Both the position numbers and the translations under genes were made by a program. The notes under the pieces were generated by a model. It saw only the letters and a program-made list of their open reading frames with translations. It did no database searches and was not told the DNA's origin. A stretch of 58,602 nt of DNA, the filler included, from Sphacelaria rigidula (lineage: Eukaryota): the NCBI GenBank assembly GCA_964200075.2. It is 8 parts of 8 records of this genome, joined end to end, with 100 filler letters (N's around TTAATTAATTAA, not from the genome) between each part and the next. Parts side by side here need not be neighbours in the genome. Positions count along the whole stretch, not along the records: positions 7,340 to 14,577 come from CAXNAA020015816.1; 7 more parts are not named here. The stretch is one strand, 5' to 3'. Positions 798 through 49,110 of this stretch are shown here, in pieces. Position 1 is the stretch's first letter. Each line of letters starts with the position of its first letter.

Positions 798-964
798 ACC
801 ATCCCTTTTATCCGCTCACCTGACGCGCTCCGCAGTAGAGGCCGAAAGGAAGCGGCGGGGCGCCGGGGCAAGAGTGCGCAAGGATTTGCAGTATCGGACT
901 GCGACTACTCCATCAACATAGCAATGAAGGAGGAGCGTCCGCCGCATGAACCTCACCTAGTGTA

Positions 965-1891
965 GTGCAATCTACTGCATCGGTATCCTCGCGTGATACA
1001 GTAAGGAAGCCCCCGGATGTTTTGTCTGCGAGTGGTACTATCGATCCATCCAGTAGATTTTCCACAGGATTGACTGCTGTTCCAGGTTTGTACTTGCCGA
1101 ATCTACTGCTGAGCCAGGAAGATGTGATTTTTACATGTGGTCCCCCAGAGTTTTCCCCTCGGATTCTAAGCCTTCAGGAATTGAGTAAGGAAGAGATTTT
1201 GGATTTGGCACTTGCAGTTATAGCACCCAGCCGCCGACTCTCCGCTGTCGGTAAGCACCAACAAACATTGAACATCAACTACTTTCACGTATCCCTCTAC
1301 CACGCTCATGAGACCATTCTCCGAGCGACCACCGCCCAATGGGGCATTACTCTCACAGAGCAGCTGGCGCCGTGCGCAGGATGTGTGGAGTCAAAAAGGC
1401 GACGCGCTGGGATCCCACATTTAAGTACTCGGTCACCCATGGTCCTCGGCATCGTCCACCTCGATCTCACAGGACCACATGAACGGACACTGGGCGGGTC
1501 ACTATATATGCTCGCCTGTGTGGATAGTAAGTCTCGCTCCATAATGTTTTGCGGTTTGGCGAGGAAGGCACACGCTTTGGCAAAAGTGAAGGGATACATG
1601 GCCGCCGTCAACGAGTTCGGTGTTCCTCGGTGCTTCCGCATCGACAACGGGGGTGAGTTCCGTTCGCAAGACTTCATCGATTTTTGTGACGAGGTACGGA
1701 TTCGTCGCGAGTGTACAGCGCCCGAAACCCCGAAGCAAAACGCTGCGGCCGAGAGCGCAATCTGGTGCATGATGAAGGCTGGTCACGCTGCGCGATGTGA
1801 AGCTCCGCGCCTCTTCCCCGCTGAGGTTTTCACGGCCATCCCCGGACTCGGTGGCACCTTGGATAGACTCTGGTTGGAGTCCGCGGTCTGA
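965..1891 (+). pseudogene. Ty1/copia GAG-pre-integrase plus integrase core (rve)
   Basis: HHCC zinc motif (FHVSLYHAH...CAGC), VHLDLTGP, FRIDNGGEF and TAPETPKQNAAAE match the copia DDE integrase; ends in a premature stop. Confidence 0.9.
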
Positions 1892-2231: not shown

Positions 2232-4034
2232 TCACCTCCAGCCGACGGCGCCAAATTGCCGCCGCCACACCTCCATAACCCCCCTTCCGTCGAGCGGTAA
2301 CGGCGGTGTTCGCAGAAGCTGTACACGCGGAACAGGTCGCATTGAAGACACACCATTTGCTCGGTAACCAAGCTGGATACCAACACCTGATGTGTCAGAC
2401 GGAACGCTTGTAGCGGAGGCGGACCGAACAAAGAAACCGATGGGGGAAGACACAACGCCTTCGGCGGAATTATGGTGTGAGCCAATACTGGGGGGTGAAT
2501 GAAAACCCACTATTTCCTCACTCGGGGGCTGTGGGGCGCTGATAGTAGCACACGAAGACAGGGGGGTTGCACCGACAGGGGTACAAGATACAGTACTCCG
2601 GGGAGCACTGATAGTATCACTCGCAGACAAAACATCCGGGGGGTTCCTTACAGGAGCACGCGAAGACTCCGCCGCAGTAGATTGCGCAACAGCAGGCGGG
2701 GTTGCACCGACAGGGGTACAAGACACAGTACTCCGGGAAGCACTGATAGTATCACTCGCAGACAAAACATCCGGGGGGTTCCTTACAGGAGCACGCGAAG
2801 ACTCCGCCGCAGTAGATTGCGCAACAGCAGGCGGGGTTGCACCGACAGACGCACACGCAGACACAGTATTCGGGGGCCGACTACAAGATCCTACAGTCAC
2901 ATGGCGTGCATGATTCCCCGGGGAACATTCTACGATAGAATTCCGGAATTCAGATTCATCGCAACTAGTCCCGGCAGCTGCCGTTGAAGAATCTACGGTA
3001 GTACGTGAAGACTCTACAGTTTTGGGGAGATCTGACTCTTTATTGGTACGTGTATCTGACGTTACACTGGCTGGCGAGTCCACAGGAGGTGTATGTGACC
3101 GTACAATGTAGGGCGAAATCACAGTACTTGAGGGAGTCGAAACTACAGTACTCGAGGGATCAGACTTACTAACGTTGTACGGGCGAAGACGCTTCGCTAT
3201 CTTTGATGAAATTTCCGATTTGCGGTCAATTCGTAATCTGCCACTGAACAAATGTATTCCAGTGGAATTCAAAGCGATATCCTGCCGCTCCTGCATGTGG
3301 TGAAGGGAGAAAATATTAAACTTGACACCCTCCACGATGTAGACATCGGTCAACTGTATTCGGAAGTCACTTGGCGGGACTGAGACATCCAAAGATCTCA
3401 TGTGGAATGTCAAGTTCAAGTTACCTACTGCCTTCACAGGAAGTCTGGTCCCGTTACCCATCACGAAATATTCCATACCCTGAGGAGGGGGTCGTAAATC
3501 AAAAACGTCATCTACACTACCCGTGACATGAACCGTAGTACCTGTATCCGCGAGCCATTCCTCTGCATGATCATCTTTACCAGATACAGTACCACCACCC
3601 GGTACATCATACCTACGTGGATCGTAATCACAAAGCCGAAGCCGAGACTCGCCTGCGGGCATGGTATGCGCCATGAATAGCCGTGGATGTTCCCCAATAT
3701 GCGGATCGGGAGAGGCAGCAGATGTAGCGGGGGGGGCTTCCGGCTGTTGATGCTGCTGCTGTTGGTCGTGATGTGGATCTGCGGTGTGGTATTGTTGTTG
3801 ATGATGGCTGTTGTCCGGGCGAGGATAGTAGTAAGAGTAATGGTCTTGGCTCGGCGGGTGATACTGTTGAGAATGTTGCTGTTGGGGCTGTGTTCGGTAT
3901 GGCGACTGCTCATGACTCGGCATGTAATGGGCATATCCAGCATCACTGAAGCCGTCCCTGCCCAGTCGGGTAAAATCTCCGTCAGTGATCAGGAGCCCAC
4001 TCCACTGTACAAGGTTTGCACGCGAGTGAGACAA
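2232..4034 (-). pseudogene. Copia gag C-terminal low-complexity region plus aspartic protease plus S/T/P-rich repeat linker
   Basis: EEWLADTGTTVHVT...VMGNGTRLPVKAVGNL...LTDVYIVEGVKFNIFSL is a copia-type protease, preceded by a Q/H-rich segment. Confidence 0.85.
2562..2850 (-). repeat. In-frame 135-bp (45-aa) tandem repeat, about 2.2 copies
   Basis: VGATPPAVAQSTAAESSRAPVRNPPDVLSASDTISA[S/P]RSTVSCTP repeated; DNA units start near 2562, 2697 and 2832. Confidence 0.9.
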
Positions 4035-5458
4035 CCTAGAATATCGGGAGTCGCTGAAGTGGTGAGGACCGTTGGTGTGGTGGTTACGTTGGGGTGGTGT
4101 CCCCCGTGATGCGGGGCACGCTGGTCTCGGTTGGGATATCGATTGCCATGTCGGCTATCAACAGGACTGCGTCCGTCGCCTCGTGTGCGAAAGATCGTGC
4201 AATTGGGAACATTGCATGATGAGGGTTGAGAGGTTGGATTCGGGTTGTGGCCGTTGTGTGGGTCATGTGGGGATGTAAAATGTGAGCGGGAGTAAGGCCT
4301 TGGCGACGGTTCATGGTCATAGTGATGGTGTGAAGTAGAATTTCCAGTTGGGTCAGATCCACACTCCCGGCAGTGGTGGTTCCACCTGCCCCCCCTGCCT
4401 CCGCGTCGCCTACCCGATACGTCACAGTGGGATACATTTCGAGCTACAGCGGACAAGGCATGATTAGTCGGAGAGTCTATCCTGCTGCTCGACAGTTCCA
4501 ACTCTGCGTGTGCAGTTTTCACCGTTCGGTGAAGGGTCTCAGTATCGATATCTGGCATGGCGAGGAGAATTCCTCTCTGGATCTGATACTCCGATGACAG
4601 CCTGCGTGCGTAATGTCTGTTTGCATCAGACTCCGAAATTACATGACCAAAATGGTGTCTCTTCTGGCGGATCAAATTCGCCCTATTTTGGAACACCAAA
4701 GGGCTTTCGCCCGGGGACATCTGCAGGCATGACCATTCGTGCTCAAGACGCGCCTTCTAAGTGGTAGGCGAAACGGTATAGTACTGAACAAAATAATCCC
4801 AAGACTCACTAGGCGAACCAAGCATCGCAAAGTTTTCTACCATTACGGGAGCGGTGATTTTTCCGAGGAGTATATCGTGGGCACCTTGAGCTTCCTGTAC
4901 TACCCCGAACCCATGCTGCCTCATCAACTCTTCTTCTCTTCCATGAAACACTCGAATGGGGTCTTGAGCAAACAGAGCATCATAGCATTTCTCGGCACGA
5001 AAGTATTCGATCATCTGAACTTGAAACGCACGAAACTTGGACTTCAAATTTCCCCCTGCTTTTACTGTACCGTCCCATGGGTGGATGCTCGCATTGTTGC
5101 GTACTCTTACAAAGTTGGGTGGGACACGTTGCCCTCCCGTGAAGTTGTCGCTTCGGAACTCTGGAAAAAAACGTGGGTTGTTCTCCTGCTCGCGGTGTAC
5201 TGTACCCACCGTGGGATTACCTTGTGCGCCTGCGCCCAAATTCATATTCCCATCTCGTTCGTACTCCGCAATAGCATCGCGTTTTCCTGCCTCGATAAGC
5301 TCTATCTGTTTTTCTTCCATGATTCGTAGTGTTTCGGTCTGCTCTACCTCCATACGCCTGAGCTTTTCCGTTAACTCTTCAGTACTGTACTTCATGTTAG
5401 CCATGGATCGACTTGTATCGTCTACTGCTGTTACTTGTTGTTGAATTGTTTGTCTCAA
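3989..5458 (-). pseudogene. Copia gag (frameshifted: ORFs 4757-5458 and 3989-4720)
   Basis: FRAFQVQMIEYF...ESWDYF and MSPGESPLVF...RRLSSEYQIQRGILL fit the UBN2/Retrotran_gag_2-type copia gag pattern. Confidence 0.75.
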
Positions 5459-7239: not shown

Positions 7240-7339
7240 NNNNNNNNNNNNNNNNNNNNNNNNNNNNNNNNNNNNNNNNNNNNTTAATTAATTAANNNNN
7301 NNNNNNNNNNNNNNNNNNNNNNNNNNNNNNNNNNNNNNN
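7240..7339. other. Artificial contig-joining linker (N-TTAATTAATTAA-N)
   Basis: 100-bp N run with a six-frame stop cassette. Confidence 0.98.
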
Positions 7340-8759
7340 ACAAAGCCTAGGGATTGTTTCGTACGAGTCGAATCAGTTATACTAAAACCAAGTAATTTCC
7401 ACACGAATAGTTATTTGTCCGACCCTTGAAGTCTTGTTTCCGTTTTGGTTCACGTTAGGGCATAAAAGGAAAGCAGCTTGGGTGGGTTACCCGCAGCGTT
7501 GGAGCTGTGCTTTTAGCACCATTCCGCCTGCTGTATTTCGCGTTTCGTTATTGTTCCGTTGGATGTGCCGCAAAAAAGCAGGTCGAGCATACGCAGCAGT
7601 CGGTGTCATCATACCGTGTTGGATAAAAAGACGGCACAACGACACCTCCGTTAAATATTTTGCGCCACGTGCGATATCGAAAAATGTGGCACCTGTTTTT
7701 CACGGCGCGTTTGTTGGTCACCTGTGTCTGCCAACCGCTTCTTCCCTCGATCAACAGGAGGACGCAAAACGCAGAATCATCTTTGCTAAAACATTTCTTC
7801 GGTCGTAGGATATTGAGCTAAAGTTCATTTTGAAAGCCAATTTGTTACCCTGGGGGGGGCGCTTGTGTTTGGTGAATAAAAGTGGAGTCCGAGACATGGA
7901 GCCTAACTGGCAGCGACGTAAAACCCAAAAACAAAATCTAGAAAATAAACTATTCCCATGTTCTGGCGCGAAACACCCTCCAAGGAGTCAAATCCCGTTC
8001 ATCCCGAAGAAGAAAAAAACGTGCCGTGTGAACCCTTTTGAAAGGCCAAGGTTTTCGAGATATCTTTGCTTGCCAAGGAGGAAGCATTCATTCACACACG
8101 ATTTTTTTTTCTTCAAGATAAACATACAAGGCTCGCATTTGATCGGCGTCGGCTGGCCTCAAATCATACAGTGTACCAATTGGGTAGAGATGGACATTTC
8201 TTCTGCAGTATATACACGAATGGTCACAAAACATTATCCAATTCCACTCCTCCGCGATCCAAGTGATCGTTGCTAAAATATACTCTTTTCTTGCCCGTAT
8301 GGACTGCGACTAAAACACCCCAGCGGGATCCGCGGCCAACAACACAGCCATCAGCAGCGGCCCTCGCACCAGCACAGCAGCACCCTTTCCGAAATCTGCC
8401 GGCGGTGACGCGGAGCGGCCGTCGCCCGCCCAGATCGCGATCGCGTCGAAAGTAGCGTCGACCCGCTATTGCGACGTGCTCGGCAACGACAGGAGCTCTG
8501 GAGGAAAATTCGGTCGCCGCTATCACGGCCGCGGGGTCGAGGGGCGCGGGCAGGTGGGTGACGAGGGCCTGGCTTCTGTCCAAGCGCGGCAAAAAATGCA
8601 GGAAGACGTGTGCCTGGCCATGCTGATGTCGCAGCCGGCGGATTTCCTGAGGTGTGGCGACGACCGAGTACCTACTGTCGCGGTACCGCGGTATCCAACA
8701 TGTTGGATCCTACTGTACTGCTACCTTAGATGAAGCGCATTTGGGAAGGTGCGAAGTTT

Positions 8760-9560
8760 GAATGGACGAAACGCGGCACCCCCCGGCCCCCCCGGTCAGG
8801 GGGGGCAGGTCATTGAGTTGCGGGAGGTTCACTGTTATGAAAAATGGATGTAAACCCCTCGCAGTTCTCCCTACTGGATAGTTCGAGGGCTGGGGGATAT
8901 CTGCTCCGATACTAAATAAAAACCAGACCTAACCATGTAGTTTAGTTATGTTCACAACTTTTGAAGAAACCCAGCAAACAATCATCGTTTATGGTCCGCG
9001 ATATATTTGAGGGTTGAGAGGTGAACGTGTCCGTTCTAAAACGGTCGATAGTCTAACATGAAGCTCCTGTCGCGCGACCAGTGGGTAGTGCAACTAGCCC
9101 TTGCTGGTGCACGTTGTACTAGTGTGTAGCAATTGTGACATTATCTACTAGAATGTACACACCTCTTCGATTACCCGCTCCATATTACCGAAAGGAAATA
9201 ACACGATGAATCAAGAATGATCCACCATCAGTCATCAATAACTCAAGGTATGGGACCACTTACCCATGTTCACCCTGACTGGGGTGATCAATTCAACACT
9301 GCTACGATTGGGCAGCTACGGAGAGTGCTGCGAGACAAGATACCTGCACGAGGCCACCAGACGGACACTACACCATCTCCCGTTGTTTGTCCACTCTGCA
9401 CCTATCGACAATCACATTCCAACGCGGTTCGTCTGTCCGTGTATGTTATGACTACCATCAGACAAGGCTGCGTTTGTCTGGGCAGGGCTTCTGGTCTTGA
9501 GGGTCTACGGGTTCCACACATTCCTTTTGCCGATATATATCGAGAAGAAACCGACCAGGC
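8760..9560. repeat. Old dispersed repeat, copy A (homologous to about 11500-12300)
   Basis: Shared collinear anchors GGTCAGGGGGGGCA.GTCATT, GGCCACCAGACGGA and GGGTTCCACACATTCCTTT.GCCG. Confidence 0.65.
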
Positions 9561-9972
9561 GGTTGGCTGGTACTGAACAACGGAAGTAATAACTGTAGAC
9601 ATTATGCACTATGCTAGCATGGAAGCCAGACAACGTGTGAATGAATTGGGGAATGCGCGTGAGTCTGGAGTATGCGTGCGTTATACAATAATAGGCTCAC
9701 CTACAAGCAGGCAGGAAATCACGACATACAGGGAAACATGATGTTGCATGAAGCTAGGGGGGGTATCACCTGCGGCCACGTAAAATGCCATGTTGTGCTA
9801 TGCTTGCTTTCTAGCCGTGACAGGTCAAATCTTGTCGTGTAGACCTGAATGAGTAGAGTCACGGTGGATGCTAGGATTGCATGACTCTCTAGACTGCTTT
9901 ACTACATTTTTCCATGCAACAGCTGCTGCGTGCTTCCTGCTATGTGATGCAGCTGAAAAGAGCAACACCACA

Positions 9973-10082
9973 CATGGGTGGCCACTGGGATGCCTGCAAC
10001 CTCAAATTTGGACGTTACAGACCTTGTGCAACGTCTGTAGCGCCCGAATTTGAGGTTGCAGGCACCCCGGTGGCCACCCGTG
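9973..10082. other. Near-perfect 110-bp hairpin with almost no loop
   Basis: CATGGGTGGCCACTGGGATGCCTGCAACCTCAAATTTGGACGTTACAGAC pairs with GTCTGTAGCGCCCGAATTTGAGGTTGCAGGCACCCCGGTGGCCACCCGTG. Confidence 0.9.
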
Positions 10083-10989
10083 CACTATGCCGTCTTCACC
10101 CATCAAGCTTTTGCTTACTGCATTTACCACACGGGAGTTTTCATCACGTTTGCACACCAGAAACGGGAGGGTGTATACAGACAAGGTTGACAGTAAATAT
10201 CAGTTGAACTCTTACTAATTCGAGTATAATCTATCTTCGTGCGCCGCTGGACGGACTAACGTTAGACTTGTTCACAACTGACGCTGCTGTTGCTGTACGC
10301 TATGATTTGTGGAGTTTCATACAGCTGACTGAAATGGAACCACGGTACAATAATATATATGCTGCTCCACACATACTCAAACTCGACAAGGCCCGCTGAA
10401 TTCAAAATCGCTTGTGTCTCCACACATTGAGTTGCGATAACACCCTTGGGTTTTACGACATGCTACCGTTTTATCTATTGTGATGCTGTTACAATATGGC
10501 TGTGCGAGATGACGGTACTGACTGATTACGGCCTGCACCATCTCCTCGATGAAATCGTTCACTTTGTACTCAGTCTAACTGTGCATGAGTAATGTGCTTT
10601 CACTATGGGAACGAAACTGTTCCGAATCACCATCGAATATCCAATGTCGGACTATGAATGCGGAAGAACCTATGCCGTTTACTGTCTATTCGAGACTATA
10701 TACTGTGGGGACACATGAGGTAGTAATGGCCGTGTTGCCTGAGTGAAACTACTCAACGCGATATCAACCAGCAGATGGGAGGTAACGAACTGCCTGCGGA
10801 AAAGATACACAGGAGCTATCAAGATGTTGTCGGCTACAACTAGTAACGAGTACAGCATATACTTCTAGGAACGCGAACCACTTGCTAGAGAATCTCATGT
10901 ATGGCCACGGATGCAACGGTGAAAGAATGTCATTTTTACTCTCTATATACTTCACAAATTCACGAAAGTACTCGTGTGACCGTAGTGCC

Positions 10990-12300
10990 ATACTGGTTGT
11001 GCGTACATGCTACAAGGCACGATACCATGTGAGCCGATTTGTCGTGAACGGAAATTGCAAAGCTTGAATCAACATGGGGTATTTACCCTACCCCGGTCAG
11101 GGGAGGGGGCAGATCATTGATGCGATAATGTGTGTTATTATCATGGAAGTTGCATGTAACTTCAACGTCGTTCCCCCTGATTGATAGTTTTGCCTTTGCT
11201 GGATGGCTCCAAAGGGTGTGGGCGAGCCTAACATGCTTGAGAACTTCGGGGCTATGTGATGTCTGCTCCGATTTTGAAGAAATCAGACCCAACCATATAC
11301 TTTGACTATACTTCACGACCTTCAATATATGGGTGATCGTTTCCATGTGCACCTAATAACCGCATCTCATACATGGCCGTGTATACAACTGATAGAGAAT
11401 GGCATTATTACGCTGCCGTCCGCTAATGCACGAAAATCTGTTTGTGTAACCGTAATGTCAAACTGGTTGTGCATACATGCTACCAGGCACGGTACTATGT
11501 AAGCCGAATAGCCGTGAACAGAAATTGCGAGGCTTGAATGAACGAAACATAAGGTATTTACTCTACCACCTGGTCAGGGGGGGCAAGTCATTAATGCTCG
11601 AAATAAATGCTATTTTGTCATGGAAAATGGATGAAAGCTCTACGTGATTCCCCTGTTTGATCGTTTGCGCCCTCGGTAAATATCTTCAAAGAGTATAAAC
11701 GAGCCATGCATGCGTAAAACAAATGGAGAGTTCTGTCAAGTTGTTTTAATTCTGAGAGATCAAACCCAACCATCTACTTGTAGTTATATTTCGACTGTGA
11801 ATACGTGGGTGGTTTTTTACAGGTCCACTGCTGAACATATCATTATTTGATCAATATTACTCGTAGCGGTGGATCACAGGACTGCATAAAGCCTGCAACA
11901 GTTGCTCGTCAACAATTATTGTTGGTGCCCGCCTGCCAAATTTCATGTAGCTACTCATGAGTGTGATAATTAACTCAGATCCACAACGATTGAGCGGCTA
12001 TGAGGGAACTGCATGCTAATGTGTTTGCATTCGGCCACCAGACGGATGCTCCGTCAGTTCCCGTTGACCGTCTATACTCGTGCACGCTCCGACAATCAAT
12101 TCGAAATGACCGTCTACTTGTGCACGCTCTGACAATCCATTCGAAGATGACCGTCTACGTGCGTGCTCCGACGATCAATTCGAAGATGACCGTCTACCTG
12201 TGCGCGCTATGATCGTCCCGGGGGCAGGGCTACATTCTTCTGGTCCGGAGAATCCATGGGTTCCACACATTCCTTTGCCGGATTTACACCGGAAATAATC
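10990..12300. repeat. Diverged tandem duplication (~470-bp period) plus repeat copy B
   Basis: ACTGGTTGTGC.TACATGCTAC.AGGCACG.TAC.ATGT.AGCCGA at 10992 and 11462, each followed by the GGTCAGGGG motif. Confidence 0.7.
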
Positions 12301-12518
12301 TGATGGAAGTCGTTGACTTGTAATAAACGACTCGTGTGTTTATCGTGGAGACTATGCAAGTTGCCAACATACAAGCCGGGCATCGAATGGGTGGACGAGA
12401 AAGTCGTATGAACCACATATATACATATATGCTTGCACCATGCAGCGAACAAGCAGGATTTGATTGCATACAGGAAAATGGGCGAGGATGAAGGCTCAAG
12501 ATGTCAAGACCATGCTTA

Positions 12519-13040
12519 TCGAACGGTTGACAGGGGGCCAGGAGTTTCCCTTGTGCGTGCGAACAGGTTGACAGAGATCCAGGATTTCCCATGTGTTTTC
12601 GAGCAGGTTGACAGGGAGCCAGGATTGTCCATATGAATTCGAACAGGTTGACAGGGGAGCCAGGAGTTTCCCATGTGTTTTCGAACAGGTTGACAGGGGG
12701 CCAGGAGTTTCCCTTGTGCGTGCGAACAGGTTGACAGAGGTCCAGGATTTCCCATGTGTTTTCGAACAGGTTGACAGGGGGCCAAGAGTTTCCCTTGTGC
12801 GTGCGAACAGGTTGACAGAGATCCAGGACTTCCCATGTGTTTTCGAACAGGTTGACAGGGGGCCAGGAGTTGCCCATGTGGTTTCGAACAGGTTGACAGA
12901 GATCCAGGACTTCCCATGTGTTTTCGAGCAGGTTGACAGGGAGTCAGGATTTCCCATGTGGTTTCGAATAGGTTGATAGGGAAGCCAGGAGTTGCCCATG
13001 TGTTTTCGAACAGGTTGACAGGGGGCCAGGAGTTTCCCAT
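12519..13040. repeat. Minisatellite, 13 units of 40-42 bp with partial dimeric (81-bp) higher-order structure
   Basis: Consensus TCGAACAGGTTGACAGGGGGCCAGGAGTTTCCCATGTGTTT; variants GGGGGCCAGGAG and AGATCCAGGA(T/C) alternate; no spacers. Confidence 0.95.
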
Positions 13041-13369
13041 GCGTCTTAGAACAGCGCGAACGCCATTTTAGCCGAAGCGAGTAGGAACGATGCACGACAG
13101 CTGTGGGTACAGGCTGAAGTTTGGCACCACAGCAACAGTAGCCACCGCTCACCAGTAACGGTGTTGCTGGACACCGGGGCAGGGGGGGGGAGCTATGCAT
13201 CAAAGTAGTGGTGGAAGTCTTTGGTGATTTGGGGGAACATATCGGGCAAACTACAGCGGCAAGGAGCAAGATTTGTGAGGGGCAGCAAACCCTAGTGACA
13301 GCAGGACGCCGTCGATGAAGATTTTGGCGTTAGCTGAGATCACGACAGTTCTGCAACTGAACACATTGA

Positions 13370-13822
13370 CAGATAGGAAAGTGCAGAACGTTAAGATCAG
13401 GATCGTCCTCGGAGTGGGCCTATCGAGGGTTGTTTCATGACGGAGCCGAATCTCACTGGCTTTCAGAGGAGGAAGTTTTGGACAGTTTCACTGGGCTACA
13501 GTTGGACGTGTTTCATGCCTTGTGGGAACTATATAACCCGCAAACTAAACCACGCCCATCCGTTAACCCATCTCGAGCGGAAAGAGACTCTTTTGCTCGG
13601 GATGAAGCTTTGCGACTCATTCCTCGAGGGACCAGAATACGTAAACAGTTTGTGGACAACCAAGGTGAGCGGCAGGAGTTCGACGGGGAAGTGTTCGACT
13701 TCCGTCAGCCGTATGACCGTATCAAGGATGAGGATGGGGATTGGAAAGAGATGACGTCGTCGAATGTGCGGAAATATGCGGTGAAGGAACAGGGTACCGG
13801 AACCGCTTTAGGATCTAATTAA
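13370..13822 (+). pseudogene. Retrotransposon Pol C-terminus with a divergent chromodomain-like and a Tudor-like domain
   Basis: EWAYRGLFHDGAESHWLSEEEV (chromo-like) followed by GTRIRKQF...FDGEVFDF...Y.RI..EDGDWKEM (Tudor-like pattern). Confidence 0.6.
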
Positions 13823-14076
13823 TGGAGAAAAGGGATCGTTCTGCACGGTGTTCAAATTCCCTACGTGGTCTAACCCAGAGCGGTCAACAAGAGCAAGGAC
13901 GCCTCCGGACTGGAAGGGATCGTCCTGCACGTTGTTTAAATTCCCTGCGTGGTCTAACCCGGCAGAACGATTATCAAGAACGACGGCTACACCCCGACGC
14001 TGAGCACTCGGAAGAGGGACATGATAACGCGGCGATCCATCGTGTGAATCACGTCAGTCCCAGGGTTTTCAATCCT

Positions 14077-14091
14077 AGGACTGAGGGGGGG
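14077..14091 (+). promoter_or_regulatory. Polypurine tract (PPT)
   Basis: AGGACTGAGGGGGGG directly abuts the TGTTA LTR start. Confidence 0.75.
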
Positions 14092-14508
14092 TGTTACGGA
14101 TCGTGGCGTGATGCGGTGGAAAGGGTGACAGTACAATGATGGGCCGTTGATTCGGAACGAAGATACGCGCCCGGAGGGCTGATTGCGGGGACTGGCTAGT
14201 ACCCGCAGTCAGGGGTGAGGATGTTGAGTAATCCGTCAAGATACGGAGTACATAAAAATATGCCTCTTGAATCTGGTTGAATCCTCCAATTCTTTCTAAG
14301 AATCGGTGCAATGCTATGATGCCCTGGTGTTCAGAACTTCTCGAAAAGGCTCTGGCTATCAACACCAAGGAACGAAAGAACATCGAATCACCTGAAGCTG
14401 TGAACAAAGATATCCTGACGGTCGACGTGTACTGTACTGGGTTGGACTGTCTCCCCACGTGCTGTGAGCTTACGATTGTTACAAGAATAACGGTGAGACG
14501 GTTTAACA
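14092..14508 (+). repeat. 3' LTR (417 bp) of the gypsy remnant
   Basis: Inverted termini TGTTA...TAACA after the PPT; no partner LTR within this contig. Confidence 0.65.
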
Positions 14509-14577
14509 GCCGATCCTAATTTTCGGGGTTGAAACATAAAATGAGGTTGAAGTCCCATTTCTCCATTGCAGGGAAGA

Positions 14578-14677
14578 NNNNNNNNNNNNNNNNNNNNNNN
14601 NNNNNNNNNNNNNNNNNNNNNTTAATTAATTAANNNNNNNNNNNNNNNNNNNNNNNNNNNNNNNNNNNNNNNNNNNN
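14578..14677. other. Artificial contig-joining linker
   Basis: N44-TTAATTAATTAA-N44. Confidence 0.98.
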
Positions 14678-21915: not shown

Positions 21916-22015
21916 NNNNNNNNNNNNNNNNNNNNNNNNNNNNNNNNNNNNNNNNNNNNTTAATTAATTAANNNNNNNNNNNNNNNNNNNNNNNNNNNNN
22001 NNNNNNNNNNNNNNN
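21916..22015. other. Artificial contig-joining linker
   Basis: N44-TTAATTAATTAA-N44. Confidence 0.98.
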
Positions 22016-29253: not shown

Positions 29254-29353
29254 NNNNNNNNNNNNNNNNNNNNNNNNNNNNNNNNNNNNNNNNNNNNTTA
29301 ATTAATTAANNNNNNNNNNNNNNNNNNNNNNNNNNNNNNNNNNNNNNNNNNNN
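29254..29353. other. Artificial contig-joining linker
   Basis: N44-TTAATTAATTAA-N44. Confidence 0.98.
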
Positions 29354-36591: not shown

Positions 36592-36691
36592 NNNNNNNNN
36601 NNNNNNNNNNNNNNNNNNNNNNNNNNNNNNNNNNNTTAATTAATTAANNNNNNNNNNNNNNNNNNNNNNNNNNNNNNNNNNNNNNNNNNNN
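36592..36691. other. Artificial contig-joining linker
   Basis: N44-TTAATTAATTAA-N44. Confidence 0.98.
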
Positions 36692-40077: not shown

Positions 40078-42960
40078 CTATCGCACCGCGCTGGTGATGC
40101 TATGCAAGGACATGATTACGGCATTGTACACTTTTGTTATTCGGGCCCCCGCGTCAGGGTCCTTCGTTGAGGCCTTCAGGTGCGCTACACTCGCCCTCCA
40201 TTCGTTGCCCTTCCCACAAGCTTGAATAGCAGACACGTGGCTCCCCACATCGGGGCAAATGCCGATGCTGGACATCTCCCTCAGAAGAGATAGCGCTTCT
40301 TGCCATTTTCCAGTCCTTGCACAGGCGGCTATGGCCGAGTTATAGGTCTCCAGGATCGGCGTCACACCTTCACCCGACATTTGCCTCAGAAGCGAAAGTG
40401 CCTTCTCCCATTGCTCAGCGCTTCCGCAAGCTCTGATAGCTGCGGTATAGGCCCGGATATCGGGCTTGACACCCTTCTCCCCCATCTCTGTCAAAAGCGA
40501 GAGCGCCTCTTGCCACCGCCCACCGATTCCGCAAGCTGTGATGACCGAGCTGTAGCTCCGCGCATCAGGATAAACGCCCTTTTGCGGCATGCCCTTCAGT
40601 AGTGATAACGCCTGCTTCCACTTCCCACTCTCCCCGCTCGCTATGAGGACCCCGTTGTAGCTCACGATATCAGGTGAAATACCCGTGTTGGACATCTCCT
40701 CCAAAAGAGAATACGCCTCCTCCCACTTCCCACCTACCGCACACGCGGTGATAGCCGAGTTATACGTCACAACAGTCGGCGTGATTCCCTCGCGCTGCAT
40801 TTCCCTGAAAAGAGACAATGCTTCCTTCCACCGCCCATCGTGCCAGAATGACTTGAGAGCAGAGTGGTAGCTGATCGAATTTGGGGTAATGCCCTTCTTG
40901 GGCATCTCCGCCAAAACGGACAACGCTTCCTTCCATCGGCCAGCCTCTGCGCATGCCTCGATGGTCGCGCTGTAAGGCATCACGTCTGGAGCGATACCCT
41001 CTGCTTCCATCTCTTTCAGGAGGGACAGAGATCTTTCCCAGCAGTGTACGGCACCCTTCGCACAAGCCTTGAGAGCTGAGGAGTAGCTGCTGATATCTGG
41101 CGCGACGTCTTCGCTTCTCCGCATTTCTTCCAAAAGAGATAATGCTTCCCCCCACTTTCCACTTGCTGCGCACGCAGCGATAGCCGAGTTATAGCTCACG
41201 GCATCAGGAGAGACACCCACCTCTTGCATCTCCCTGAAAAGAAATGTCGCCGTCTCCCACTGGCCACCGTCTCCACAGGCCTTGATGACTGAGCTGTAGC
41301 ACACCGCATTCGGTGAAACGGTCCCGTCCGCCTGCATCTCCCTCATGAGAGACAAGGCCTGTTCCCATTGGCCACAATTTCCGCACGCCTTGATGGCCGA
41401 GCTGAAGCTCACCACGTTCGGGGAGACACCCACCTCTTGCATCTCCCTCAGGAGCGATACCGCCTGCTCCCACTGTCTACCTTTTGCACAGGCTGCAATA
41501 GCTGAGCTGTAAGCCCAGGCGTTCGGGGTGACGCCATTGCTCCGCATCTCCCCTAAAACAGCCAACGCCGACTCCCATTGTGCACAGCTCCCACAAGCGC
41601 TGATTACCGAAACGTAGGAATACATGTCCGGGGAATTCCCACTGCTCCGCATATTTTCCAAGAGAGTCAACGCTTGTTCCCACTGCCCGTTGTCCCCACA
41701 TGCCTTGATGGCCACGTTGTAGCTCTGAGTATTGGGAGCAACGCCCTTTTCGGGCATTTCCCGCAAAAGCAACAGTGCCTGCTCCCATTGCCCACCGATT
41801 CCACAAGCCTGGATAGCGAAGGTGTAGCTCGCCGTATTCGGAAAAGTACCCCCCTCCCGCATATCTCTCAATAGCGATAAGGCTTGCTCCCACCGTCTAC
41901 CCTTGCCGCAGGCGGTAATGGCCCAGTTGTAGCTCACGACAGTGGGAGTAATTGCTTTGCTAGCCATCTCGCTCAACAGAGACAGCGCCTGCTCCCACTG
42001 CCCACTTACCCCACACGCCGCAAGAGCTGAGTTATAGGCACCAAGGGTCAGCGTGAGGCGTTGACCCTGCATTTCCCTCAGAAGCGACAACGCCTTCTCC
42101 CATTGCCTGGCGTTCCTGCAGGCGTTGATGGCTGCGACATAGCTCCGGCCATCTGGATCAATGCCTTTCCCTCGCATTTCCCTCAAAAGTGACAGCGCTT
42201 TCTGCCACTGGCGTCCATCTCCACACGCCTTGATGGCAGCGGCGTAAATCTTTGCGTCCCCAGCGATTCCGCCATGTCGCATTTCTGACAAAAGCGACAC
42301 AGCCCGTTCCCACTGCCGGCCGTTCCCGCACGCCTTGATAGCGGAGAGATAGGTCAAGGCATCTGGGGCGACCCCCTCTGCCTGCATAGCTCTCAACAAA
42401 GACATCGCCGGCTCCGCCTCACAACCCCTGGCGCAAGCGTTGATCGCCGCGGTGTAAGTCACGACATTGGGATACACCCCTCTTTGTCTCATCTGTGCTA
42501 TGACCTCGACAGCGATCTCCCACCTGCCGCACTTTCCAGCAGCGGCAATTGCAGCATTGTAGACGTACACGTTCATCACAGAGCTCGCGTTGTGGTGAGA
42601 CAGTGCTTCCTCTAATATGCTCGACGCCACCTTCCAGTCTCGCTCGGTCCCGGCCCGCCGTAACCGGCGCACGTATTTCTGCGAAATCGATTGAGACTCA
42701 CTCCGTTTTTGACCTCCGTCCCCCACTCCGGCGTCCGCCGAACGCCCATCCTCACTACTGGCTTGGTTTTCGACAAGCGGACCAGCCTCACCTCTCAGCT
42801 GCTTTTGGTCGTGCAGCCAACACTGATCTGAAACTCTGTCTGCAGTGAACGAGGATCCGATTTTGGAGACAAGAAAACGGATAGAGTGCTGTGTGCGTGA
42901 TGCACGCCTCGCCGTGCTGATCGAGGCCTTCACGCCATTGCCAAGACGGTGAAGGGCCAT
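40078..42960 (-). CDS. P-class pentatricopeptide repeat (PPR) protein, ~960 aa, probably organelle-targeted
   Basis: 22 canonical ~35-aa repeats (xxxYNxAIxACGxxGQWEQALSLLxEMxxxGVxPD/N) plus degenerate flanking repeats in one open frame. The ATG at 42960 starts an R/S-rich leader; the ORF is open to 43065. Confidence 0.95.
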   Translation of the reverse strand: MALHRLGNGVKASISTARRASRTQHSIRFLVSKIGSSFTADRVSDQCWLHDQKQLRGEAGPLVENQASSEDGRSADAGVGDGGQKRSESQSISQKYVRRLRRAGTERDWKVASSILEEALSHHNASSVMNVYVYNAAIAAAGKCGRWEIAVEVIAQMRQRGVYPNVVTYTAAINACARGCEAEPAMSLLRAMQAEGVAPDALTYLSAIKACGNGRQWERAVSLLSEMRHGGIAGDAKIYAAAIKACGDGRQWQKALSLLREMRGKGIDPDGRSYVAAINACRNARQWEKALSLLREMQGQRLTLTLGAYNSALAACGVSGQWEQALSLLSEMASKAITPTVVSYNWAITACGKGRRWEQALSLLRDMREGGTFPNTASYTFAIQACGIGGQWEQALLLLREMPEKGVAPNTQSYNVAIKACGDNGQWEQALTLLENMRSSGNSPDMYSYVSVISACGSCAQWESALAVLGEMRSNGVTPNAWAYSSAIAACAKGRQWEQAVSLLREMQEVGVSPNVVSFSSAIKACGNCGQWEQALSLMREMQADGTVSPNAVCYSSVIKACGDGGQWETATFLFREMQEVGVSPDAVSYNSAIAACAASGKWGEALSLLEEMRRSEDVAPDISSYSSALKACAKGAVHCWERSLSLLKEMEAEGIAPDVMPYSATIEACAEAGRWKEALSVLAEMPKKGITPNSISYHSALKSFWHDGRWKEALSLFREMQREGITPTVVTYNSAITACAVGGKWEEAYSLLEEMSNTGISPDIVSYNGVLIASGESGKWKQALSLLKGMPQKGVYPDARSYSSVITACGIGGRWQEALSLLTEMGEKGVKPDIRAYTAAIRACGSAEQWEKALSLLRQMSGEGVTPILETYNSAIAACARTGKWQEALSLLREMSSIGICPDVGSHVSAIQACGKGNEWRASVAHLKASTKDPDAGARITKVYNAVIMSLHSITSAVR

Positions 42961-43699
42961 GAGTCCCAACCCAAGAAGCAGCACTCTGCATGGCGGGAGG
43001 GCGGGAGGACGAGAGGGGCAAGTGGTCAAAGATACCGTTGGGAGGAAGACGGGGTGTAAATACATGTCAGAGTGTCAAAATATGGTTACGCTCCTGTCTT
43101 ACAGGCTTGTCGGCAGAAACAAGCGTATCACCGTGTCTAGACCACGGCGATCACCATGCCACGGCGAGGGTCATTTGGCTCTAAAATGGGCTAGCGCAGT
43201 AGGTGACCAGGCAATGGTGCTATGCTGAGGAGGAAGTGTTGTGCCGACGGGTAATAATATCTCGCCTGGTATCATAGTCATACTGTACATAAGTACACAA
43301 AGGCACATGCACACATGATGGCAATGCAGGAGACAACTCAAGAATCAGCATGGCGACGATTCCTAGCATCTGGGAGCGGGGCTGGGCATCAATACAATAT
43401 GAAGAGTGACGCTCGCTGTCCCAAGGTGCAGGAGTTGCCGGGCGTGTTGCCACAACCAACATCTGTCGATGAAGGGTACAACGAAAGTAATCACGGTGTA
43501 CGGCGGAACATGAAAACGCTCTGCAGCTTTTCCTTTGTTTCTCCAATGCAACACTCACATGTTGCCGCCGCATCCCGGTGGTCCAATCGTACTGGTGACC
43601 CCGCAACGTCGGCAAGAACGTGGCTTCCACTATCACCAGATGCGTTTAGTTTGACTTTTTTCCCCCCCCGCAAACAATTCGATTTCCGTGGTTGCAACT

Positions 43700-43928: not shown

Positions 43929-44028
43929 NNNNNNNNNNNNNNNNNNNNNNNNNNNNNNNNNNNNNNNNNNNNTTAATTAATTAANNNNNNNNNNNNNNNN
44001 NNNNNNNNNNNNNNNNNNNNNNNNNNNN
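43929..44028. other. Artificial contig-joining linker
   Basis: N44-TTAATTAATTAA-N44. Confidence 0.98.
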
Positions 44029-44164
44029 CTGCACAACAACTCCAATCGTTTCCTATTGCCCCGCATAATGTCCCGCTTGTTACTCAGTGAACAAGCTTCC
44101 GTATTTTAGCTTGATGCTACTGAACATTGACTCACATATGTTATGCAACATGAAAATTTTGACG
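44029..44164 (-). repeat. 3' LTR (truncated by the contig start)
   Basis: Near-identical to the outer 136 bp of 49287-49915. Confidence 0.9.
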
Positions 44165-44311: not shown

Positions 44312-45849
44312 CTAGAAAGTACGCATCAGACCAGCTCCCTCGTTCGCGTCTTTATTTGAAGTCCGAAAGGTCTTGATTACGTGCAGCAGGTGCAAGTGAC
44401 GTTGTTTGCCCAAGTATTTCGTCCCAATGTCGGCGATGTTGTTCTTGGTGTCCACGTGATGAAGGGGAATCCTTCGCATCTTAATGAGTTCGCGAATGAA
44501 GAAGTAGCGCAATGCCACATGCTTGGTCCGTCCACTGTAGGTGCTGTTACCGGCAACGTGGAGTGTTGAGGTGTTGTCGATGTAAACCGTAACACTGTGA
44601 AATGCCTCGCCGAATCCCAGCTCCATCATTATGCTGGAACAAAACATAGCCTCTTTCGTTGCTAGCGCTGCCACCACAAGCTCAGCTTCCATTGTCGACT
44701 GAGCAGTTAGACCCTGTATTCTGACTTTGAAACTCACCGGAGCGTTCGAAAGCATGACGGTATACGAGGACATCGATTTCCCGGTATCCGGATTGTTCCC
44801 CCAGCTGGCGTCCGAAAACAGCGTGAGCTGAAATCCTCCCTTCCGGTACGTCATATCGAAACTAGCACTCCCCGCGCGGTAACGTAGAAGATGTTTCGCA
44901 GCACCCATCTGTGCTTTTGATGGTCTTGACACCGCTCTCGCAAGCTGGTTGACATCAAACTGGATATCATACCGGGTCGCTTGTGCTAGATACATGAACG
45001 AGTCGGTGATCGCCTGGTATCGCTGTGTTGCCGCCGGATCCAGAAGCTGCTCTTCCGGTTGATTTAATGACAGCTCTGCTCCAGTTCCTGGCGTGCTCAG
45101 CGGATTGCAGTCCCTCATGCCGTACTTCTCCAGGATCGATTTGGTGTAGTTCTCCTGGCTGATAGTGAGCGTCCCATTCTTGCGGTCTCGGGTGACTCTC
45201 ATTCCGAGTACAAGTGACACGTCTCCCATGTCCGTCATTTTGAAGCGGACCGTGAGTTTTTTTTTTTGAGAGTCTGAAGTACTGCCACGTCCCCTCCAAT
45301 AAGGAGCACATCGTCCACGTAGAGGGTGAGAAGTGCGACAACCTTCCTCTTTCCGAGAGCGGTGCTGACGGTGTCGCCCCGGGAGTCATCGGCCGTGATG
45401 TCGTCTTTGTCGTCGTTGTCAGTGAAGATGTAGATGCAGGGGTCTGAAGCGAGAGAGGTGAAACCGACCTCCCCCAGAAATTTGTCCATCGTGTTCCACC
45501 AATTCAGTGGCAACTGGCGAAGGCCATTTAACGACTTCCGGAGCTTCATCACGAGAGGAACTCTCGTCACGGGATCGTTCTCCTCATAGCCCGGGGCCAT
45601 CTTGACGTAAACTTCCTCTTCAACGAGCGCGTTTAGAAGTGCCGTCTGCACGTCCAGCTGCCACATTTCCCAGTCCATCTCCGCGGCCGCTGCATGCACC
45701 ATACGGATGCTCTGTAGCCTACAGACGGGAGCGAAGGTGCCGCCGCAGTCGATGCCCGGTACTTGTCCCCATCCTTGGACGACGAGTCTTCCCTTGTATG
45801 TGTTGTCGGCTTTTACCTTATACACCCACCTGGATCCGATGGCTTTCAT
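44312..45849 (-). pseudogene. Copia reverse transcriptase (RVT_2) plus RNase H, frameshifted at a poly-A run near 45260
   Basis: SRWVYKVK...YKGRLVVQG, QLDVQTA, LYVDDVLL; FSDASW, STMEAE, IDNTS, RTKHVALRYFFIRE, NIADIGTK. Confidence 0.95.
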
Positions 45850-46626
45850 CCCTGCAGGAATCGCCGTGAAGGGTACAAGCGTGAAGACATTATTGGAACG
45901 GAGGCTTTCTATTTCTTTGTCTGATGCTGTCTTCTACTGCTCCGCCTCTGGCAGTCGCATTGCCTCTTGAAAGGTGTTCGGCACTATGACCACTTTCTCC
46001 CATCCGAACAACTTCGAATTTGGGTGTTTGTGGCAGAGTACGCATACTCCAGAAAGGAAACTCCATCCTCGTGAGCGATGTCTTGCATATTTGCCTTGGC
46101 GTAGAAACTGGCCAAAGTCTCCAGGCGCTTCAGCTCGCGGGCTTGAGCGCTTCTCGTGCTTGCGCCGGAGATGACGTATATCGGGGCTTGTGGGTTAGCT
46201 CGCGTGCTGACACGCGAAGAACCCACTGTAGGTGACGGTGTTGTAGCTGGAGGTGAACCTTCAGTGACTCCCCTTCCTTGGGAGGCTCCAGTGGGCACCT
46301 TTCCCGATGAAGATCGGACGAGGTCGTTAACACTGTCCGTTGTTTCGCGTAAGATCTCCGAGCAGTTGGAATTTTTCCACTTTTCGAAGAGCTTCCAGGC
46401 TCTTGGTGCCGACGTGACCAAGTCGACGATCCCAGAGGTTTCGCGCTGGCGTTGACGTGCATAGTCACTCCAGGTTGCTGCTCTGCGTGGCCGCTCAGCT
46501 CCATGCGGAACGTGTAGAGGTCTTGGTCATGGATCAATTGTTCCAGGGGAAGCACGAACGGTAGGTTCTCCAGTTAGGGATGATATTGATCGAAGATGGC
46601 GATGATGCCTTGCTTGGTCGCCACTT

Positions 46627-47052
46627 TCACGGAGAATATATGACGCCCGAGTCCGGGGACGACGAAGCAAGAGAGGACGACATGGTACGCCTTCTTTTTT
46701 CTGTAGGTGACTGTACCATGAATGGTGGCAGTTGCAACTGCTTCAACTTCATTGTGTCCCCTGTTACAATTTTGAACGGTCGTTCGAGGGCCGTGTACTC
46801 ACTTGCCCGAGCTAAAACACCCGACTCGAGATTGGTGTCCAAGTAGTGACCGGTCGCGCCACTGTCCACCAGCCAGGTTACAGAGTTGGTGTCGTTTGCT
46901 GTCCGAGTCGTCGGTGCCGCCGCCATGAAAGCTGATCCAGTATCCCCACCGAAGGCACCGAAGTGGTCGAATATGTTTTCTGAGAGTCCAGCATGCTGTG
47001 GTGGGGTGGACGCGCCGAAGGAAAGCACTGGAGGAGCCGATTCCGTCATCAC
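46627..47052 (-). pseudogene. Copia aspartic protease
   Basis: VTWLVDSGATGHYLD. Confidence 0.85.
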
Positions 47053-47141
47053 AGTTCGCTGGGGTCCTCCGACTGTTCCGGACGAATTGCTGTTTGCAGT
47101 CGTCGCCGCGGCAGGCTGCGGGATAAAAGACCCGGGAATGC

Positions 47142-48082
47142 TTACATTGGCGATGTTGGCGCTTCAATTCCTTGCTGCTTTTTTTGTTGTACCTTGCACT
47201 CAGCGTCGCTGTATGTTGTTGTTCCATGATACGAGCACCATTTTGATGCTTCATTACTTCCCTTCTTCTTATCTGTTTTTTGACGTCTCTGGGTCGGATT
47301 ACTCGGCCGTATCCGACTTCGCTTGTTGTTCGGGCATTCACGTTGATAGTGCCCAAACCCATTGCAAAGGTGACACTGAACACCAGATGTCGTAACCTGC
47401 ATAGCCGCTCCAGGTCCGGCCACGGTTGGTGCAGTTGACGAACCAAAATTCCGATCATTGTACGCGTTGCACATTGCGGTGCGAATGTTGTCAAGGCCGA
47501 AGTCGCGCTCGGTGTAGCATTTCGTGCGCACGAAGTCATACTCGGGGGTTATCGCGTTGAGGATAATGTCCTCGTAGCGATCGTCGTGCATTTTATCCCC
47601 GAGACCCTCCAGACGCAGACGAATTTCGTCCATATCTTGGAAGAAATGTTCGGGGTCCTCGCCCGGTTTCATCGTGCGGCTCACCAGCTGAGCGTGAACT
47701 GCCCGTCTAGCCGCTTTGGTGTTGCCATCGATCTTCTCGACCAGGGTCTTCCACGCACCTTGCCCATCGCCGACCCGTGGGTCATCGAGATCTTCATCCT
47801 CTGTGTACAAGAACCGCCGGATGATCGCAGCTGCTGGTCCGATCGAAAGGACCAACAGCGAAAACAGGTCGCTGTTCTTTCCGTCCCATTCGCGGCTTGC
47901 TGGTTCGTCAGTAGGCCTTCGTTGGCCTTTGAGAACGGCGAACATCGGCTTGTCAACGATAGAGATTGCTACTCGCAGCTGATCTTTCCACGCAATAAAG
48001 GTGCTCTTATCCTCCGAAAATTTAGGTACCCGTTTGAATACAGCCGCTATGCGGTCGGAACTGGTGGCGGTGTAACTCATCA
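47142..48082 (-). pseudogene. Copia gag with CCHC zinc knuckle
   Basis: FIAWKDQL...GQGAWKTL...MKPGEDPEHFF...CHLCNGFGHYQREC. Confidence 0.92.
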
Positions 48083-48094
48083 TGCAGAGAGAAA

Positions 48095-49110
48095 ATGAAC
48101 TACGCAAGACTGTACGCTTCGAGGCTCATCAATGCTCGACACCTAAGTGCGAATTCCCTGACTGTGCCGCCTTCCTGCGCGTACAGGTTTTCGCTGTACC
48201 TCGTACAGACTACAGCTCGCGCAGGGTTCGTCCGCAGGGATGATAAACTACGCAAGGCTGTACGCCTCGAGACTCATCAGTGCTCGATGCGTAAGTGCGA
48301 ATTCCCTGACTGTGCTGCCTTCCTGCGCGTACAGGTTTTCACTGCACCTCGTACAGACTACAGCTCGTGCAGGGTTCGTCTGCAGGGATGATAAACTACG
48401 CAAGGCTGTACGCTTCGAGGCTTACCGATGCTCGACGCGTAAGTGCGAATTCCCCAACTGTGCCGCCTCCCTGCGCGCACGGGTTTTCACTGTAGCTTGT
48501 GCAGACTGCAGCTCGTGCAGGGTTCGTCCGCAGGGATGATAAACTATGCAAGGCTGTACGCTTTGAGGCTTACCGATGCTCGACACCTAAGTGCGAATTC
48601 CCTGACTGTGCCGCCTTCCTGCGCGTACAGGTTTTCACTGTAGCTTGTGCAGACTGCAGCTCGCGCAGGGTTCGTCCGCAAAGATGATAAACTACGCAAG
48701 GCTGTACGCTTTGAGGCTCATCAATGCTCGACACCTAAGTGCGAATTCCCTGACTGTGCCGCCTTCCTGCGCGTACAGGTTTTCACTGCACCTTGTACAG
48801 ACTACAGCTCGTGCAGGGTTCGTCCGCAGGGATGATAAACTACGCAAGGCTGTACGCTTCGAGGCTTACCGATACTCGACGCGTAAGTGCGAATTCCCTG
48901 ACTGTGCCGCCTTCCTGCGCGTCCATGTTTTCACTGCACCTTGTGCAGACTACAGATCGTGCAGGGTTCGTCCGCAGGGATGATAAACTACGCAAGGCTG
49001 TACGCTTCGAGGCTTACCGATGGTCGACGCGTAAATGCGAATTCCCTGACTGTGCCGCCTTCCTGCGCGCACGGGTTTAAACTGTAGCTTGTACAGACTG
49101 CAGCTTTGAC
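48095..49110. repeat. 148-bp tandem array (~6.8 units) in the copia 5' leader
   Basis: ATGATAAACTACGCAAGGCTGTACGC recurs at 48240, 48388, 48536, 48684, 48832 and 48980. Confidence 0.97.

Follow-up and report, generated by a model that had tools for sequence, protein, structure and literature searches.

Probable 3' end of a dead Ty3/Gypsy element in the brown alga Sphacelaria rigidula, with a predicted chromodomain-fold and Tudor-like tail on Pol

The stretch of DNA analysed here (the window) contains 58,602 nucleotides, spacers included, from the brown alga Sphacelaria rigidula (assembly GCA_964200075.2). The element under study is located within the piece at 7340-14577 (record CAXNAA020015816.1), where positions 13324-14508 probably constitute the 3' end of a dead, 5'-truncated Ty3/Gypsy retrotransposon. 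This remnant comprises the last ~165 codons of Pol with their stop codon, and then a purine run followed by what is most likely the 3' long terminal repeat (LTR). The end of Pol would carry a tail of two domains, one with a chromodomain fold and one resembling a Tudor barrel. Spacers of the form N44-TTAATTAATTAA-N44 recur about every 7,338 bases and divide the window into eight pieces, each about 7.24 kb long; features located on separate pieces do not adjoin one another in the genome.

The tail is encoded in a stop-to-stop open reading frame (ORF) of 150 amino acids (aa) on the plus strand, at 13370-13822. Its length alone is weak evidence, because the window holds 78 stop-to-stop frames of at least 130 aa. 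The frame includes WAYRGLFHDGAESHWLSEEE and GTRIRKQF...FDGEVFDF...YDRIKDEDGDWKEM; both strings had been quoted in an earlier reading of the same DNA (the sequence-only reading), which placed eight residues between QF and FDG where nine are present. A phmmer search with the 150-aa frame against 1.84 billion representative proteins, which are clusters at 50% identity, returned 257 matches at E<=1e-3, 93 at E<=1e-10 and three at E<=1e-30. The top relative, P0001 (312 aa), aligns its residues 165-307 to residues 7-149 of the query with 71% identity (E 2.5e-60). Judged by these matches, the frame is a genuine homologous protein sequence and not a chance frame.

The relatives place the two-domain module at the end of a Gypsy-type Pol. 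In the Pfam scan, which took in the 20 longest relatives, P0005 contains Integrase_H2C2 (126-181) and rve (196-292) followed by the module (532-655), and P0047 has both integrase families and the module in the same order. P0076 carries Integrase_H2C2 (457-510) and rve ahead of the module at 862-988. The most complete order of reverse transcriptase (RT), RNase H, integrase and module within one polyprotein is found in P0020 (RVT_1 125-285, RT_RNaseH_2 359-410, Integrase_H2C2 804-844, module 1023-1129) and is absent from the window. RVT_1 is also present in P0121, and sub-threshold matches to rve and/or SH3_Tf2-1 occur in P0114, P0118, P0052 and P0098, those to SH3_Tf2-1 in P0114 and P0118 lying upstream of the module. 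Altogether, retroelement families were detected in nine of the 20 long relatives, and host-type families in none, except for one weak PcrA_UvrD_tudor match. The in-frame linkage of module and integrase is thus read from predicted proteins and not from DNA: a metagenome scan for the DNA context of the relatives, queried with P0001, produced 79 pattern matches of which none was confirmed, and a second metagenome scan with a degenerate version of the conserved motif YWRVRY(E/D)DGDWE returned no loci. As judged from these proteins and from the models described below, the order in the relatives is integrase, chromo-like domain, helix and Tudor. The proposal that the frame is part of a Gypsy-type Pol is hence borne out by relatives with the module C-terminal to the integrase and, in P0020, behind RT, RNase H and integrase.

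The profile of an alignment of 45 relatives of the 150-aa frame (A1) matched the C-terminal integrase region of Ty3 Gag-Pol (residues 1280-1450, 7q5b_A) with E 1.1e-13 and residues 232-378 of the prototype foamy virus (PFV) integrase with E 4e-4. In the relatives, this C-terminal region of the Ty3 and PFV integrases lies just upstream of the module; the upstream region is missing from the window. Ty3 targets genes transcribed by RNA polymerase III (Pol III) through its integrase and is not known to have a chromo or a Tudor extension.

Two variants of the architecture were observed among the relatives. In the sub-branch of P0114 (~560-707) and P0118 (~460-603), about 150 extra residues with a ..KFGTGW..G.L.. 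motif follow the Tudor; Pfam gave no match for this extension, which may be a third small domain. In P0010 (496 aa), the first RT residues run in frame directly into the chromo-like and Tudor module, as seen by comparison with P0020. This protein is an internal-deletion derivative that kept the reader cassette, which fits the "many deletion derivatives" of a published table (PMC12477816).

The second half of the module is assigned, by its profile matches, to the PTM/DIR17-like Tudor family (PF21743), the only Pfam family that matches this half. Residues 245-293 of P0001 reach 29.8 bits against the curated gathering cut-off of 27.2. Among the 20 long relatives, 12 match PF21743 at E<=0.01 and P0001 alone passes the gathering cut-off; among the A1 members, 33 of the 45 match at E<=1 (best 1.6e-07) and three also touch Tudor_3. 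The AlphaFold2 (AF2) model of the 150-aa frame, computed with A1, has a mean predicted local distance difference test score (pLDDT) of 88.3 and a predicted template-modelling score (pTM) of 0.56. Its residues 78-140 fold as an SH3-type barrel formed by strands E89-95, E101-112, E115-120 and E125-129 and helix H130-136 (pLDDT 93-98). The sequence-only reading had called a Tudor-like domain by eye and named AlphaFold on this translation as a check; the family matches of the relatives uphold that call, with which the predicted SH3-type barrel agrees.

The wide structural search with the model listed the Tudor domains of PHF19 (Z 5.1, 2.9 Å, 54 aligned residues), SMN (4.8), RBBP1 (4.8), 53BP1 (4.7, 26% identity), LBR (4.6) and ERCC6L2 (4.6), and the Foldseek list was led by the Tudor proteins SETDB1 and then Spindlin1, SGF29 and 53BP1, none at E<=1e-3. 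Because other SH3-type barrels score as high or higher, the fold indicates a barrel and the assignment to Tudor rests on the Pfam profile. Conservation was counted across 151 relatives in P0001 numbering: F252 is kept in 79/131, Y269 in 97/113, W274 in 92/100, Y278 in 75/96, D280 in 78/95 and W283 in 74/88, and the positions around ..PYWRVRY.DGDWEE.. are strongly conserved. In the linker that precedes the barrel, the A and L of an ..EAL.. motif are nearly invariant in A1. In the ESM Atlas, feature scores of 0.81-0.83 lie below the 0.9 lead level and the nearest named clusters are Chromo. Its structure rows, all below the naming bar of the tool, include PF21743 and rve+PF21743 clusters; in structure, the PF21743 clusters come closest to P0001 residues 223-303, and they serve as leads only.

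The first half of the module has, in the models, a chromodomain fold. In the AF2 model of the window frame, residues 1-58 form strands E2-10 and E13-21 and helices H33-36 and H42-55, and the structural rows that cover them are chromodomains only (eEF3 Z 4.9, Chd1 4.8, Oxpecker 4.7). Since Pfam Chromo is absent from the A1 members at E<=1 and yet residues 1-58 match chromodomains, the intact version was folded alone, from a 73-residue stretch of P0001 and 58 relatives (alignment A2). This model reached pLDDT 90.4 and pTM 0.77 and shows two long strands (E10-18 and E24-31), a third, short one and helix H52-65 at the C-terminal end, that is, the three-stranded antiparallel sheet packed on a C-terminal helix of the chromo fold. 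It matched 228 chains at Z>=2, and rows 1-37 of the best 50 are all chromodomain or chromoshadow entries. The list is headed by Oxpecker (Z 6.5, 2.5 Å, 59/61 residues), Chp1 (6.0), SUV39H1 (6.0) and HP1 (5.8), followed by Chd1, Rhino, CBX7, CHD4 and cpSRP43. The aligned parts of eEF3, New1, GEN1 and ZMET2 are presumably their chromodomains. In Foldseek, chromodomain 2 of CHD6 gave template-modelling scores of 0.57/0.61 at a non-significant E. The call of a chromodomain fold is made because the list is uniform and the coverage extends over the full domain, despite Z values below 8. Several aromatic positions are well kept in this part (W174 84/87, Y176 82/90, Y/F180 59/101 and W188 100/112, P0001 numbering). 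The chromo-like stretch of the sequence-only reading therefore keeps its fold, as rows 1-37 of the best 50 and the top Z of 6.5 indicate, and loses the family label, Pfam Chromo being found in 0/45 A1 members.

The window copy itself is a dead, decayed fragment of no functional weight. Pfam detected no RT, RNase H, integrase or protease in the 75 frames of at least 40 aa at 7386-14570, and tblastn with nine long relatives against the whole window matched only at 13373-13816. The term "Gypsy-like Pol" used earlier for this locus consequently applies to the last ~165 codons, the other Pol domains being absent from the piece. A loose tblastn (E 0.075) aligned residues 146-173 of P0001 to frame 3 of 13324-13431; relative to 13370-13822, this match has seven additional residues and lies in a shifted frame. 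Upstream of 13324, nothing further matches the relatives by tblastn, and about 270 match-free bases separate this point from a satellite array (12519-13054). The array has very high cover in the contigs of public runs and marks the extent of the foreign flank. A protease-like frame at 13050-13208 (+), with ..LLDTGAGGGSYAS.. and ..VLLDTGAGGGSYAS.. (a retropepsin-like active-site motif), had no Pfam match and matched one relative at E 7.6; it was not counted.

Logan contigs of four public runs (X1, X2, X3 and X6), one of which is labelled as an algae metagenome, were mapped on 13000-14577. They reveal two changes in the Tudor barrel, where the window codons GAC (13715-13717) and GAT (13727-13729) correspond to Y116D and Y120D. 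At 13715 the window has G and the contigs nearly all T (in X1 2369.7/2422.5 of the depth in 11 contigs; 12, 14 and 1 contigs in X2, X3 and X6, respectively). At 13727 the window again has G and all contig depth is T, in 12, 11, 7 and 1 contigs of X1, X2, X3 and X6. With T, both positions give tyrosine codons, as in P0001 and in the family consensus, and one of the two sites is equivalent to Y278 of P0001. The lack of a PF21743 match in the window frame fits these two changes. A contig of 420 nt over 13406-13762 was found in one of four small-share runs, whose RNA origin is only a guess, and nothing about expression is drawn from it. The window copy cannot target integration: RT and integrase are absent, a frameshift disrupts the chromo-like part, and aspartate replaces two conserved tyrosines of the Tudor. 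The earlier statement that the copy is decayed is thus confirmed by the frameshift, the 5' truncation and two private Tyr-to-Asp changes.

Downstream of the stop codon, the purine run and the contig cover fit an LTR at 13836-14508. The contig depth rises about fivefold from the bin 13795-13847 to the bin 13848-13900 and stays high until ~14270, and loose contig ends cluster at 14499 and 14504. A 47-nt direct repeat (13830-13876 and 13914-13960) lies in or at the candidate LTR. The interval 13836-14508 is most likely the 3' LTR, its limits being approximate; since it is the single candidate, the call rests on contig cover, which is a poor measure. Another interval, TG(13933)...CA(14570), with 638 nt near the 636 bp of a published LTR, was rejected, as the cover rises at ~13848 and changes at ~14484-14504. 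Of the polypurine tract and LTR previously proposed at this place, both find a candidate, and a second LTR copy is lacking. The coordinates are collected in Table 1.

Table 1. Coordinates in the window of the element remnant, its flanks and the joins between pieces.
Feature	Position	Strand	Basis or remark
40/81-nt satellite array, outside the element	12519..13054	.	Tandem Repeats Finder: period 40 x13.2 copies, period 81 x6.4
First-strand remnant of the chromo-like domain (..LTDRKV)	13324..13392	+	Other frame than the main ORF; homology is detectable no further 5'
Chromo-like domain, strands 2-3 and C-terminal helix, with WAYRGLFHDGAESHWLSEEE	13370..13543	+	ORF residues 1-58
Linker with one long helix	13544..13621	+	ORF residues 59-84; AF2 H69-83, block pLDDT 73-93
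Tudor-like SH3-type barrel, GTRIRKQF...DGDWKEM	13622..13780	+	ORF residues 85-137; AF2 and PF21743 in relatives
Stop codon (TAA) of the Pol frame	13820..13822	+	Direct reading
Candidate polypurine tract GGAGAAAAGGGA	13824..13835	+	Direct reading; between the stop and the cover rise
Candidate 3' LTR, limits approximate	13836..14508	+	Cover rise and loose contig ends
Start of another, far more abundant repeat	14484..14577	.	Summed word depth 0.4-1.8 million in X1-X3; reaches the piece end
Spacers between pieces	7240-7339, 14578-14677, 21916-22015, 29254-29353, 36592-36691, 43929-44028, 51266-51365

Several results weigh against the reading of 13324-14508 as a Ty3/Gypsy 3' end with a chromodomain-fold and Tudor tail. 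The 150-aa frame itself has no Tudor or Chromo match in Pfam at E<=10. Pfam Chromo (PF00385) is matched at E<=1 by 0/45 A1 members, and the match between the A1 profile and the chromodomain of CDYL2 had an E no better than 0.86. Searched against PDB sequences, the module-only profile gave a best E of 0.23, with unrelated enzymes. Foldseek against PDB returned 0 matches at E<=1e-3 both for the 150-aa model (best the SETDB1 Tudor, 0.085) and for the chromo-like model (best the MPP8 chromodomain, 0.21). All structural Z values are below 8, a range that the search tool calls common, and non-Tudor barrels reach equal or higher values than the Tudor rows (a designed SH3 6.0, Spt5 KOW 5.5, the C-terminal domain of BirA 5.3). 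The first candidate cage position of the chromo-like part, Y157, is aromatic in just 42/74 members. No second copy of the LTR occurs in the piece or in the window, and there is no target-site duplication; none can be read, because the copy is 5'-truncated.

As homology and predicted folds indicate, the end of Pol in intact relatives consists of the integrase zinc finger, the DDE core, the SH3-like integrase C-terminal domain, the chromodomain-fold domain, a helical linker and the PTM/DIR17-like Tudor. By analogy with chromoviruses, such a reader cassette would tether the integrase-cDNA complex to nucleosomes with some methylated histone residue, and this tethering would bias the landing sites of new copies. 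In brown algae, two marks linked to repression, H4K20me3 and H3K79me2, are the evident candidates, but Tudors from other families recognise H3K36me3 or H3K4me3. The proposal of the sequence-only reading, a Tudor reader that would target integration, is reasonable as a hypothesis. A further step, on the unlikely side, is that the diverged chromodomain and the Tudor would act as a two-reader cassette for a combination of marks on one nucleosome. In organisms that lack H3K27 methylation and, for the most part, H3K9 methylation, it would steer integration to lineage-specific repressive chromatin with H4K20me3 and/or H3K79me2. The cassette is old and widespread, with at least 257 clusters at 50% identity and deep sub-branches, and is in frame even in internal-deletion derivatives.

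The function of the chromo-like half is where the alternatives differ most. It is possible, at somewhat less than an even chance, that the Tudor is the only histone reader and that the chromo-like domain is a structural adaptor or one that binds protein or nucleic acid, of the chromoshadow, cpSRP43 or eEF3 type. The absence of Pfam Chromo from all 45 members speaks for an adaptor, as do the chromoshadow and cpSRP43 entries among the structural matches (Z 4.6-5.0) and the candidate cage positions that are aromatic in just 42/74 and 59/101 members; the cage of this domain is possibly diverged or incomplete. The published description of a comparable lineage also names a Tudor only, as far as its text goes (PMC12477816). 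On the other hand, the best structural rows are the methyl-lysine-binding chromodomains of Oxpecker, Chp1, SUV39H1 and HP1 (Z 5.8-6.5), and W174, Y176 and W188 are aromatic in most members, whether as core or as cage residues.

Doubt can also be raised about the barrel, which might be a second SH3-like domain of the integrase type, with DNA, RNA or a host protein (for instance one carrying methyl-arginine) as its ligand. This is improbable. Tudor, KOW, SH3 and BirA-type barrels are indeed not distinguished by the structural matches, and most relatives stay below the PF21743 cut-off, which P0001 alone passes among the 20 long ones. PF21743 is, however, the sole family on the barrel, in 33/45 members with a best E of 1.6e-07 (Tudor_3 in 3/45), deep branches share the pattern of conserved aromatic and aspartate residues around ..Y.DGDWEE.., and an SH3-like integrase domain is already present upstream (SH3_Tf2-1 in P0114 and P0118; the Ty3 alignment). 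That the frame instead derives from a host gene for a domesticated reader is very improbable, in spite of the fact that most database relatives are shorter than 350 aa and devoid of a retroelement domain and that PF21743 is otherwise a family of host proteins, in streptophyte and diatom clusters. Against such an origin, all long relatives with any other recognisable family carry retroelement families (9/20), and the window copy lacks a start codon context, is frameshifted and bears the two private Tyr-to-Asp changes. It also sits between a satellite and an abundant repeat, and the contigs of the runs contain it in thousands of diverged pieces. The favoured reading is a retrotransposon remnant with a chromodomain-fold and Tudor tail.

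The closest published counterpart comes from Ectocarpus, in which four Gypsy lineages are described, all with chromatin-reader domains and three with C-terminal chromodomains (PMC12477816, Genome Biol 2025). In that description, Gypsy-10_Ec32 (Repbase Gypsy-10_ES) carries a C-terminal Tudor in an element of 11,528 bp with LTRs of 636 bp. It has 87 copies, one of them full-length, and "many deletion derivatives", with fragments that include some of 570-1,096 bp that have diverged by 15-19%, and a homologue of the Tudor-bearing lineage is reported from a yellow-green alga (PMC12477816). The likeness consists of a Gypsy Pol with a C-terminal Tudor in a brown alga and of a window remnant of ~1.2 kb, on the same scale as the published fragments; the candidate LTR, with an internal duplication of 84 nt, measures about 670 bp against 636 bp. 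The present module differs in that a chromodomain-fold domain stands directly before the Tudor, whereas the text on Gypsy-10_Ec32 names a Tudor only; its figures may show more. Likened by the published description and not by sequence, the window copy most likely belongs to the Gypsy-10_Ec32 lineage or is sister to it. The idea of a Tudor-bearing Gypsy element is, as that source describes it, already in print for Ectocarpus since 2025, and no other report of a transposon with a Tudor emerged from a literature search.

The module is also comparable to that of chromoviruses and other chromodomain Ty3/Gypsy elements (MAGGY, Tf1, plant CRM, oomycete Chronos); in chromoviruses, the chromodomain directs integration to marked chromatin. 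Here, in contrast, the chromo-like domain is too diverged for Pfam Chromo (0/45) and is followed by a second reader, the Tudor. For MAGGY, integration directed to chromatin marked by H3K9me is cited in 10.1101/2021.11.30.470311. The Ectocarpus chromodomain lineages are described as unrelated to chromoviruses or Chronos (PMC12477816). The PF21743 family, otherwise met in host proteins, occurs here within a retrotransposon polyprotein, the window copy being below detection. As to the marks available, brown algae are described as devoid of H3K27 methylation, with H3K9 methylation unseen in most species and with H3K79me2 and H4K20me3 linked to repression (PMC13076208). The background on brown-algal marks given in the sequence-only reading agrees with this account, as far as that source covers it.

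The remaining pieces of the window hold features of their own. A Copia-type element at 44315-48125 (-) contains Retrotran_gag_2 (6e-10) and two frames that match RVT_2 (8e-43 and 6.9e-09); it is flanked by 135-nt direct repeats with 99% identity (44029-44163 and 49780-49914), and a 148-nt tandem array (48088-49127) lies inside the repeat-flanked element. Piece 1 carries retroelement remnants on opposite strands, at 950-1888 (+) and 2235-4154 (-); the matches are to the rve integrase core (1.6e-09) and to a beta-barrel domain of Pol (5.3e-07). An uninterrupted pentatricopeptide-repeat (PPR) frame of 998 aa is located at 40081-43074 (-), with PPR_2 at E 6.8e-165 and 17 stretches; it is apparently an intact host gene with no introns over this span.

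In comparison with the Ectocarpus description, the additions of the present analysis are modest. They consist of the chromodomain fold directly before the Tudor, of the occurrence of the cassette in hundreds of diverged database proteins, always together with retroelement domains where any further domain is recognisable, and of the list of conserved aromatic residues in the cassette. If true, the two-reader cassette would be a bivalent reader of a kind not previously described for the integrase of a transposon. Few cases show as clearly as integrase-fused readers that a transposon can select where to land according to chromatin state. The usual heterochromatin marks are missing from brown algae, and a Tudor on an integrase would therefore be a natural probe of the chromatin that is "safe" in these organisms, a point put in print in 2025 for Gypsy-10_Ec32 (PMC12477816).

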